This document shows positions 11,925-15,149 of a stretch of 64,000 nt of DNA, piece after piece. Below the pieces are notes generated by a model. The model made no database searches. It was given only the letters and a program-made list of their open reading frames with translations, and was not told the origin of the DNA. The position numbers and the translations under genes are program-made. How positions within the stretch are numbered: the stretch's first letter is position 1; each line of letters starts with the position of its first letter. The DNA comes from Felis catus (taxonomy: Eukaryota): assembly GCF_018350175.1 (NCBI RefSeq), contig NC_058368.1, positions 16,370,001 to 16,434,000 of the forward strand. Reading direction: 5' to 3'.

Positions 11925-12166
11925 AACCAAAAAACAAACAAACAAACAAAAAAGGTAAAACAAATTGTGAAAGCAAAAGCTGGCTATGAAACCAGGGTTT
12001 TTGATAGCCTTTGCCTTATTTAAACAGGTTACACGTTAATATGCGACAGTTGATAAATGCTATGAGGTGGAAGTTAGCATTTGCTAATTTACTTTAAACA
12101 TCTCCCCCTACCCAGGGCACTATGGAAAATATGTATATGTATGATCAACGCTCCCTCCTTCAAGTA

Positions 12167-12889
12167 TCACAATCTTGTGGTCACATAATCTTCGTGGGTG
12201 GCTGTGTCCGTGAGGTTTCCATCATAGTCTATACTGGAGTCCTCTTCCTTTGCGTGCTTCTCCTTTGGTATTATTGGAACAGTGTCCTCCACCACCACCT
12301 TCTCCGACTTGAAGGAACACACTCTCTTGCCCACCTGTAAACCCAGGGTGTCCGTGTTCCTTTCTCGATGGTCTACTAAGATACACTGTTCACTGAGACC
12401 AGGGATGTTCAAGTCACCCCGCGAAGCTAACCCTCGGGATTCCAGTTGAATATTCCTCTCCAGTGGTCTTTCGGCCTGCTGACGAGCAACTTCTTCTGAA
12501 ACAGAGAAGATTTGGTTTGCATTTTGCTCAGCAGCGTTTTGTTTTGACCGTCTGTGAAATAACCCGAAGTTTTTGATGTCGGTCACAAAGTTCACTTTTC
12601 TCTGCTTCTCTCTTGGGGGCTCTTGCACCACTAGGGCGGAGCCATTGCTGATGTTGTGTCTTTCGGAGGCAATCGCTGCCGATCGCGGGTGAATCAGGGT
12701 GGTTAAATCGAAAAGGCTGAAGTTCTTTTTCTTGTCTTTGCTACTGCCTTCGTTGTCACTCTTTTCATCCGAGTCGGCAGAGTTGGAGGACTCCTTTGTG
12801 GCCTGAGCCGACTGGACGGTAGAGAGCTTGCTTCCTCTTAGTAACCCCAGGACTTCAAAGCGGAAACTAGAAATGTCTTGCTTTAGTTC
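12167..12889 (-). CDS. TRPC4: TRPC4 terminal coding exon (exon 11), 723 bp including TGA; coiled coil, alpha-specific 84-aa segment, PDZ-binding VTTRL
   Basis: Acceptor TTTCACTTAG| then [57 protein letters not shown]...EDYVTTRL*; the TTRL end distinguishes TRPC4/5, and the internal sequence is TRPC4. Confidence 0.98.
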
Positions 12890-12991
12890 CTAAGTGAAAT
12901 GTGAAATGAAGAAATTTAGTTTGTGACTTAAACAAACATGAGGGCTCATGGTGAGCACATTTCATATATAGCTCTGATGTGTTTTCACTCA

Positions 12992-13208
12992 TTTTTTTTT
13001 AAAGTTTACCTATTTATTTTTGAGAGAGAGAGAGAAAGAATGAGCAGGGAAGGGACAGAGAGAGAGAGGGAGAGTGCCAATCCCAAGCAAGCTCCGTGGT
13101 GTCAGAGCAGAGCCCAGCAAGGGGCTCAATTCCATGAACCCTGTGAGATCACCACCTGAGCTGAAATCAAGAGTCCAAGGCCTAACCAACTGAGCTATCC
13201 AGGCACTC
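12992..13208 (-). mobile_element. Older CAN-SINE in the last TRPC4 intron
   Basis: gagctgaaatcaagagtc..taaccaactgagctatccaggcac, (GA)n, T-rich tail. Confidence 0.88.
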
Positions 13209-13463
13209 CTACTCGTTTTTAAGAGCCAGGATTCCATTTTTGCTGTGGTTCTGTTGAGAACTGCCTGTTCTGTCCCTGGCACTGGAGTCATTTTGATGCC
13301 TGCTAATTTCCCTGTTGGCAGTTATGTAGTAACAAGGAGACCTCCTGGGGTTGATGCAAAAGGAAACAAGAGTATATCGGATTTGTGGGACTATAGTTTC
13401 AAATGCTTCCTTTCTAAAATATTCACCTGCTTTCAGGTCACCTCTCATTCTCTCAGAGATGCA

Positions 13464-13695
13464 TTTTTTTTTTAATTTTTTTTTTCAACTTTTTTTTTTA
13501 ATTTATTTTTGGGATAGAGAGAGACAGAGCATGAACGGGCGAGGGGCAGAGAGAGAGGGAGACACAGAATCGGAAACAGGCTCCAGGCTCCGAGCCATCA
13601 GCCCAGAGCCTGACGCGGGGCTCGAACTCACGGACCGCGAGATTGTGACCTGGCTGAAGTCGGACGCTTAACCGACTGCGCCACCCAGGCGCCCC
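13464..13695 (-). mobile_element. Young felid SINE (SINEC_Fc-like)
   Basis: Near-intact CpG-rich body; TSD cag(a/g)gatgcattttt at 13454-13468 and 13696-13710. Confidence 0.95.
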
Positions 13696-14644
13696 CAGGG
13701 ATGCATTTTTAAAAGGGTTCTCATGTTAGCATATCTTTCTATCCAAAGGGATATCTAAAACAAAATAATTAAAGTGGTTTCTACTGTTCCAAGAGTTGGC
13801 AGTTACCTTCAATTGTTTACTACCTTGGGGTTGCATTTACCTCAACACCTGGGACAGCTACTAAATCTTGAGAATTGCTTCAGATCAGACAGCATTTCTC
13901 AGATGTATCCTCTACTCTTATCTTTTTGGACACTGAATTCTCAGTCCTACTCTTTTTGGATAACTGAGTTCTCAGTCCTAACCTGATGGTGGCCTTCCTG
14001 GTGGCTTCGTGCCTCCAACCTATCTCCTAAAGCACCAGGAATCATTTAACTACAAAGTGTGGATGTTGTGACTGTGAAGAACATTTGGGATCCTTTCAAT
14101 CTGTGCTTTGCGTTTTACAATTCATCTGTCTTCTTACCTAGCCCGCTGTTCATCTTTATTCTCTTGTCAAACCTGCCATTCTCGGTTAAAGGATCTTCTT
14201 CAGGGTTTTTTTATTTGTTTTTGCCTATAAGACCCTATTGACTTCACTCATTCTTTCAAAACCTCTAAGAACTCAGGCAGAATAACAAAAACATTTTATA
14301 CCTGTGACTTGAGCATATATATTTCATGTATTCCACCTATCTCCTCTGATGGAATAAAAAACACAAAAAAACCTCAGGGAGAAAGACTAAGTTTGTAAGT
14401 TACAATTAAGCACAAACCTTCAATTTCCTGCTACCAAAGCTGTGCATAGGACAGAGAAGGTTTTTGTTGTTGTTTTTAACATGTTGGTTACCACATGTTT
14501 CAGGCTTAGAAATCAGACTGGAATTTCAAAAACTAAAGCTCACTCATTCGAATGTTGCTAGGATCAGCAAGTTAAAATGCCACAAGGCACTAGGATTTTC
14601 TCTGTCTCCAAGTCCCCTCCACATTTCAGATTTAATGTGCTTTA

Positions 14645-14858
14645 AATTTTTTTTAATGCTTATTTAGTTTTGAGAGAGGGAGACACATAGTGCGAGCAGG
14701 GGAGGGGCAGAGAGCGAGGGAGACACAGAATCTGAAGCAGGCTCCAGGCTCCGAGCTGTCAGCACAGAGCCCAAAGGCAGGGCTCGAACCTATAGACCGC
14801 AAGATCATGACCTGAGCTGAAGTCAGCTGCTTAACCAACTGAGCCATCTAGGTGCCCC
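14645..14858 (-). mobile_element. CAN-SINE
   Basis: Perfect TSD agatttaatgtgcttta at 14628-14644 and 14859-14875. Confidence 0.95.
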
Positions 14859-15059
14859 AGATTTAATGTGCTTTAGAATAATGTATTTTGAAAGGAGATT
14901 TCACTGCTTAAAAAAAAAGAAGCTTGAATTTAAGAGTAAGAAGGCACACAGGCTTGCTGAAACTCTTGGCCAAGTTGCCAGTTCTGATTATAAATGTGCT
15001 GCATCTGGTTCCCTGCTCTGCAGAACCTGCCCCCTGGTGATGAGGATACAAACGGTTAC

Positions 15060-15149
15060 CTTAAAGTTCTCTTCAGTCAGACCTTCTTCAGTTTTGGCAT
15101 CTCTGATCATTGCGGCCACATACCTCTTCACCAGGTTCCGCATAACCTC
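15060..15149 (-). CDS. TRPC4: TRPC4 coding exon (exon 10), 90 bp
   Basis: [30 protein letters not shown]; acceptor CCTCAG|, donor AAG|GTAACC; preceded by a 127-bp intron. Confidence 0.97.

Follow-up and report, generated by a model that had tools for sequence, protein, structure and literature searches.

Introduction

TRPC4-alpha and TRPC4-beta channels differ in autoinhibition and in PIP2 sensitivity (Schaefer 2002 and Otsuguro 2008, as cited in PMC12248226), and the beta form of human and mouse arises by removal of an intron (residues 785-868) that the alpha form retains as coding sequence. According to the portions of PMC12248226 (Cornman 2025, PeerJ) used here, the beta isoform dates from early eutherians, and many lineages later lost its canonical splice signals. 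Such loss is described there as 'relatively common' among eutherians; Fig. S4 illustrates it for Chiroptera, Carnivora (panel B) and Artiodactyla, and the caveat is added that loss of the canonical signals leaves non-canonical splicing possible.

Introns with GC donors provide the second described system that is relevant to this locus. About 1% of human introns have a functional GC donor (PMC3167603), and GC donors are reported to be enriched in alternatively spliced genes (PMC2490688), statements taken, like those that follow, from excerpts of these papers. Active GC donors reportedly show a close resemblance to [C/A]AGgcaagt, and only about 15-18% of +2T>C changes still yield normal transcript (PMC12805630). 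Even so, a weak GC donor can be used in >90% of transcripts when it is backed by exonic enhancers with dense GAA/CAA (PMC3167603).

The present analysis concerns the beta-specific internal intron (exitron) of TRPC4 in Felis catus, within a 64,000-nt stretch of genomic DNA (the window), and compares its splice sites with those of other mammals. Splice junctions are marked below with a slash.

The TRPC4 locus

The C-terminal coding exons of TRPC4 lie on the minus strand of the window, with the following features:

12167..12889, minus strand: TRPC4 exon 11, the last coding exon, stop codon included; 240 codons, ELKQD...VTTRL
12890..15059, minus strand: intron 10, with GT at 15059-15058 and AG at 12891-12890; contains probable tRNA-derived SINE copies
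about 15060..15149, minus strand: TRPC4 exon 10; 30 codons, EVMRN...EENFK; main donor AAG/GTAACC
15077..15085, minus strand: internal GT donor in exon 10, AAG/GTCTGA, +1 at 15082; of the type needed by 836-aa (gamma-type) models

In the minus-strand reading of 12100..13300, exon 11 starts at 12889 with GAA CTA AAG, directly after ...cacttag, and continues as an open frame of 240 codons to a stop codon ending at 12167, giving the C-terminus VTTRL. Across its full 240 aa the translation matches the TRPC4 models of Lynx rufus, Puma concolor, Lynx pardinus and Prionailurus at 100% identity, and the database record of Felis catus isoform X1 is the identical 977-aa protein. A tblastn search of the window with the Lynx rufus alpha protein (P0003) located the exons for residues 410-977, with residues 738-977 falling on exon 11 at 100% identity. 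The orthologue identity across exon 11 and the VTTRL tail identify these as the C-terminal exons of TRPC4.

The internal GT donor of exon 10 would serve the gamma form, judging from the junction of a protein (P0126) in which ...DAKT is followed by EEVARQQ. The heptamer GAAGAAG (minus strand) occurs both just 5' of this donor (15077-15085) and just 3' of the internal acceptor in exon 11 (12483-12495), so the 836-aa junction ...DAKT/EEVARQQ can be explained by more than one donor-acceptor pair and the protein alone does not tell which AG is used.

Within intron 10, ARAGORN reported two tRNA-like elements on the minus strand (13606-13690 and 14769-14852), and a third tRNA-like head is visible in the minus-strand reading at about 13090-13230. 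These elements, which are flanked by a (GA)n run (13022-13074) and a T-rich run (13463-13510), look like copies of tRNA-derived carnivore SINEs.

The beta exitron and its splice sites

The exitron and its two splice sites lie entirely within exon 11:

12496..12747, minus strand: beta-specific internal intron (exitron); 252 nt = 84 codons, kept in TRPC4-alpha and removed in TRPC4-beta
12742..12750, minus strand: beta donor, AAG/GCAGTA, a GC donor with +1 G at 12747 and +2 C at 12746
12496..12518, minus strand: beta acceptor, AAACCAAATCTTCTCTGTTTCAG/ with pyrimidine tract and AG, then AAGAAG

The interval from 12747 to 12496 is in frame, has codon phase 1 and is orthologous to residues 785-868. 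Joining 12748 to 12495 yields ...SDNE/EEVARQQ, the same junction as that of the 893-aa TRPC4 models in protein databases. On these sequence features the interval is the felid orthologue of the TRPC4-beta exitron.

The donor stands in the context GAC AAC GAA G/GC AGT AGC, in which the final exon base G is 12748 and codon 48 of exon 11 is GGC; the bases that follow GAAG, at 12747-12746, are thus GC and not the canonical GT. At the other end, the AG occupies 12497-12496 in the local text ...atcttctctgtttcag/AAGAAG, preceded by a pyrimidine tract. With GC at +1/+2 and an AG acceptor, the interval has the first property expected of a functional GC-AG intron. A previous inspection of the same DNA without database searches (the sequence-only reading) had placed a 252-nt beta interval at these positions and had described its donor as GC and its acceptor (CAG/AAG) as intact; all three observations hold, and the 893-aa models lack exactly the 84 residues in question.

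The donor dinucleotide across mammals

The comparison is based on named mRNA alignments in File S1 of PMC12248226, of which parts 33 and 100-102 were used together with one wide-context search; the statements below on individual records apply to that material. The carnivore alignment (carnivore.trpc4.fas) comprises 16 records, one per genus, with the canids represented by a single record. The donor is GC in 15 of these 16 genera (Odobenus, Zalophus, Phoca, Leptonychotes, Mirounga, Enhydra, Meles, Mustela, Neovison, Ailuropoda, Ursus, Panthera, Leopardus, Suricata and Hyaena); the sole exception, Canis lupus dingo, has GT. The acceptor pyrimidine tract and CAG/AAGA are kept in all 16 records. 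The Leopardus geoffroyi record has a 3-nt gap within the exitron, between AGACAC and ATCAGC, and thus one Asn codon fewer than the window and Panthera.

Outside carnivores, File S1 gives the human donor as GAAG/GTAATA and the mouse donor as GAAG/GTAATG, in agreement with the AAG/GTAAT(A/G) that the sequence-only reading had cited. Cow and the bat Rousettus have GAAG/GTAGCA and the dingo GAAG/GTAGTA. The G at +4, which had been counted as a second difference of the felid site, is therefore also found in the GT-bearing donors of dog, cow and Rousettus, which makes it an old feature and no sign of felid decay.

Other lineages have donors that are neither GT nor GC. Two species of Manis (pangolins) have GG, and in Manis pentadactyla the acceptor AG is gone as well; this species, on its sequence, would be a clear case of complete loss, compared with which the GC donor of carnivores is a milder state. 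Both pangolin records are strongly GC-enriched over the C-terminal region. Equus przewalskii has GA, the record that precedes it in File S1 reads GG, and GG is also found in the two marsupial records covered in full, Gracilinanus and Antechinus.

By clade, the third base of the Gly codon is C in Feliformia, T in Canidae, C in Arctoidea, T in cow and bat, and G or A in pangolin and horse. All four states are thus found within Laurasiatheria, which is the pattern expected of a weakly constrained site. As far as the aligned records indicate, the GC state is old and common to feliform and arctoid carnivores, and not a property of cats alone, so the attribution of the change to a felid lineage was too narrow. 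With the taxa compared, a change on the carnivore stem followed by reversal in canids and two parallel changes would each require two changes.

An error of assembly at 12746, which the sequence-only reading had named as a finding that would overturn it, or a variant private to the animal sequenced has next to no chance of being the explanation. Both are excluded for practical purposes, since Panthera tigris, Leopardus geoffroyi and 13 further carnivore genera have the same GC in independent records.

Strength of the GC donor

Donors were scored by the number of matches to the 9-position donor consensus and by the ViennaRNA duplex energy with the 5' end of U1 snRNA, both of which are crude scores. 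Among donors other than GT, GC alone is used by the major spliceosome with appreciable frequency. The scores were as follows:

felid GC donor: 4/9 consensus; U1 duplex -4.3 kcal/mol
human and mouse GT donors: 6/9 consensus; U1 duplex -6.6 kcal/mol
dog GT donor: 5/9 consensus; U1 duplex -7.0 kcal/mol
cow and Rousettus GT donors: 5/9 consensus; U1 duplex -6.2 kcal/mol
mustelid GC donors: 3/9 consensus; U1 duplex -4.0 kcal/mol
horse GA donor: 4/9 consensus; U1 duplex -4.6 kcal/mol
pangolin GG donor: 3/9 consensus; U1 duplex -3.5 kcal/mol

In predicted U1 pairing the felid GC donor does not surpass the horse GA site. The felid donor departs from the consensus at +4, +5 and +6 and is not a close match to [C/A]AG/gcaagt, the resemblance described for active GC donors in the excerpts of PMC12805630 used here. 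The earlier judgement that the remainder of the site is far from the consensus usual for active GC donors was thus borne out.

Compensation by exonic enhancers was considered as a means of using such a weak donor and was dropped. GAA/CAA triplets, a crude proxy for enhancers that follows PMC3167603, are not enriched in the last 50 exon nucleotides before the donor, where there are 4, a count reached by 1839 of 5000 shuffles.

Alternative in-frame GT donors

A different route to a beta-like product would be the use of another donor in exon 11. The nearest candidate is the weak in-frame GT to which the sequence-only reading had drawn attention, and which is indeed present:

12739..12747, minus strand: weak in-frame GT three bases downstream of the donor, GCA/GTAGCA, +1 at 12744; 249-nt excision; 3/9 consensus; U1 duplex -1.9 kcal/mol

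Beta-like splicing could have moved to this site, or to the in-frame GTs at 12759 or 12867, since these dinucleotides do lie upstream of an intact acceptor. Each of the three matches the consensus at only 3/9 positions and pairs with U1 more weakly (-0.2 to -2.8 kcal/mol) than the GC site itself, and no protein with such a junction was present among the database sequences aligned (the 893-aa and other models and 11 short fragments). A shift of this kind is accordingly very improbable, and the suggestion of a beta form displaced to 12744 found nothing in its favour; poor consensus match and poor U1 pairing led to its rejection.

Database isoform models and short proteins

Beta-type proteins of 893 aa are recorded in databases for ten carnivore taxa with GC donors: Puma, Lynx rufus, Panthera, Neovison, Suricata, Odobenus, Crocuta, Hyaena, Mustela nigripes and Ursus maritimus. 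Six 893-aa models were aligned (Lynx rufus, Puma, Panthera, Suricata, Canis and Ursus), and each lacks exactly columns 785-868 (84 aa) and has the junction ...SDNE/EEVARQQ; four of the six are from taxa with GC donors.

TRPC4 isoform lengths of 982, 977, 893, 836, 828 and 804 recur across many mammals, including a 2013-era walrus annotation, and are the same as those of the human TRPC4 isoform set. This recurrence, together with the identity to the human set, is what would be expected if the models were projected from human proteins, and it makes them no proof of RNA. None of the 16 database rows of 893 aa gives Logan assemblies as its source. The pattern suggests that the 893-aa models are projections from human proteins rather than RNA-backed sequences.

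Short proteins across the beta junction gave 33 database matches, of which 11 were aligned. One of the 11, P0171, is of the beta type; its cluster mates are rat and gerbil, and its text fits a mouse record. Four others (P0169, P0173, P0174 and P0177) retain the exitron with both flanks, and the remaining six begin within it. The fragment with retained exitron that is carnivore-like (P0169, mustelid-like) may come from DNA. This Logan-derived fragment also runs past the VTTRL stop (...TRLW...), as if the gene caller had read TGA as Trp, a database artefact.

Splicing of the exitron in felids and other carnivores

The donor sequence, the spread of the GC state across taxa and the weak consensus match lead us to infer that TRPC4-beta is probably much reduced or lost in felids, although a weak GC-AG intron may still splice. 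In the mechanism proposed, an old synonymous change in the Gly codon, from GGT to GGC, would have turned the donor from GT to GC at a site where the remainder of the donor was already poor in Laurasiatheria, with G at +4 and with +5 and +6 off consensus. Given this poor starting point, the GC version pairs with U1, by prediction, no better than the dead GA site of the horse. The exitron would then almost always be retained, and most or all of the channel would be of the alpha form, which is autoinhibited and PIP2-sensitive, with beta scarce or absent. In favour of this are the donor AAG/GCAGTA itself, with GC in 15 of 16 carnivore genera, 4/9 consensus matches and a weak U1 duplex, and the rodent affinity of the sole beta-type short fragment (one of 11 aligned, of 33 matches). 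The four states of the third codon base in Laurasiatheria, the reported traits of active GC donors, the lack of GAA/CAA enrichment and the published losses of beta signals in eutherians point the same way. Against a loss of beta stand the C that is unchanged in all 15 GC genera and the acceptor that is kept in 16 of 16 records, both of which would also be compatible with continued use, and the exact 893-aa beta models recorded for ten carnivores with GC donors, Lynx rufus, Puma concolor and Panthera among them.

These same observations bear on the possibility that felids and other carnivores continue to splice out the GC-AG exitron, at a reduced level or under tighter regulation, with GC acting as a dimmer and the beta form persisting. 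That GC donors function in human introns and are efficient with enhancers (PMC3167603, in part), and that some normal splicing survives a proportion of +2T>C changes (PMC12805630, in part), gives this possibility a mechanistic basis. Retention of C in 15 of 15 GC-bearing genera while related orders show G or A, retention of the acceptor throughout the carnivore records, and the models with the exact junction in ten taxa all agree with it. The donor, with 4/9 matches, all of +4 to +6 off consensus and U1 pairing like that of the horse GA site, argues against it, as does the GAA/CAA count given above. One invariant synonymous site in 15 genera is weak evidence of selection, and the isoform sets, which repeat across species like the human set and list Logan assemblies in 0 of 16 rows of 893 aa, look projected. 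Because the acceptor is embedded in conserved coding sequence (IFSVSEE) and may be shared with gamma-type splicing, its conservation can be explained without a beta form and decides neither for reduction nor for persistence. On balance, persistence of beta through a dimmed exitron is possible, though doubtful.

A more specific form of persistence is also conceivable, in which a weak but conserved GC-AG exitron lets most carnivores make beta in deliberately small, regulated amounts. The C at +2 and the acceptor would then be under selection, while pangolins and horses would have drifted to dead GG and GA; canids would have kept or regained a stronger GT, and the ratio of alpha to beta would differ between dog and cat. 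Taken as a whole, this proposal appears unlikely.

If the reduction or loss of beta is real, such that beta is scarce or absent in cats, ferrets, bears and seals but made in dogs, rodents and humans, TRPC4 physiology and drug responses would not be simply transferable between carnivore models or from these to humans, and the beta form would be dispensable in a large mammalian clade. This would be of interest chiefly to specialists in TRP channels and in comparative splicing.

Comparison with known systems

The phenomenon is already known in general form from PMC12248226, and the finding at the felid locus is known in kind. The site and the kind of observation are the same, and File S1 of that study includes Panthera and Leopardus sequences with GC; its text contains 0 occurrences of felid or Felidae and does not set GC donors apart from dead GG or GA. 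Among the literature matches listed for feline TRPC4, no title concerned TRPC4 isoforms in cats, and a search linking TRPC4 with the term exitron found no paper.

Like natural GC-AG introns and +2T>C variants, the felid exitron has GC ahead of an ordinary AG, and it is likewise alternative. Those GC donors that work are either near the consensus (PMC12805630) or accompanied by dense GAA/CAA enhancers (PMC3167603), as far as the excerpts used describe them, and the felid site has neither property.

The closest system is the human and mouse TRPC4-beta intron. The beta junction is documented in RNA for rodents (Logan fragment P0171), and the felid exitron is known from genomic sequence. The felid interval agrees with the human and mouse intron (residues 785-868) in position, in its length of 252 nt or 84 codons and in phase, and shares with it the acceptor text TCTGTTTCAG/AAGAAG as well as GAAG/ on the exon side of the donor. 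The difference lies on the intron side of the donor, where human and mouse have GT, A at +4 and a 6/9 consensus match, and the felid site has GC, G at +4 and a 4/9 match.
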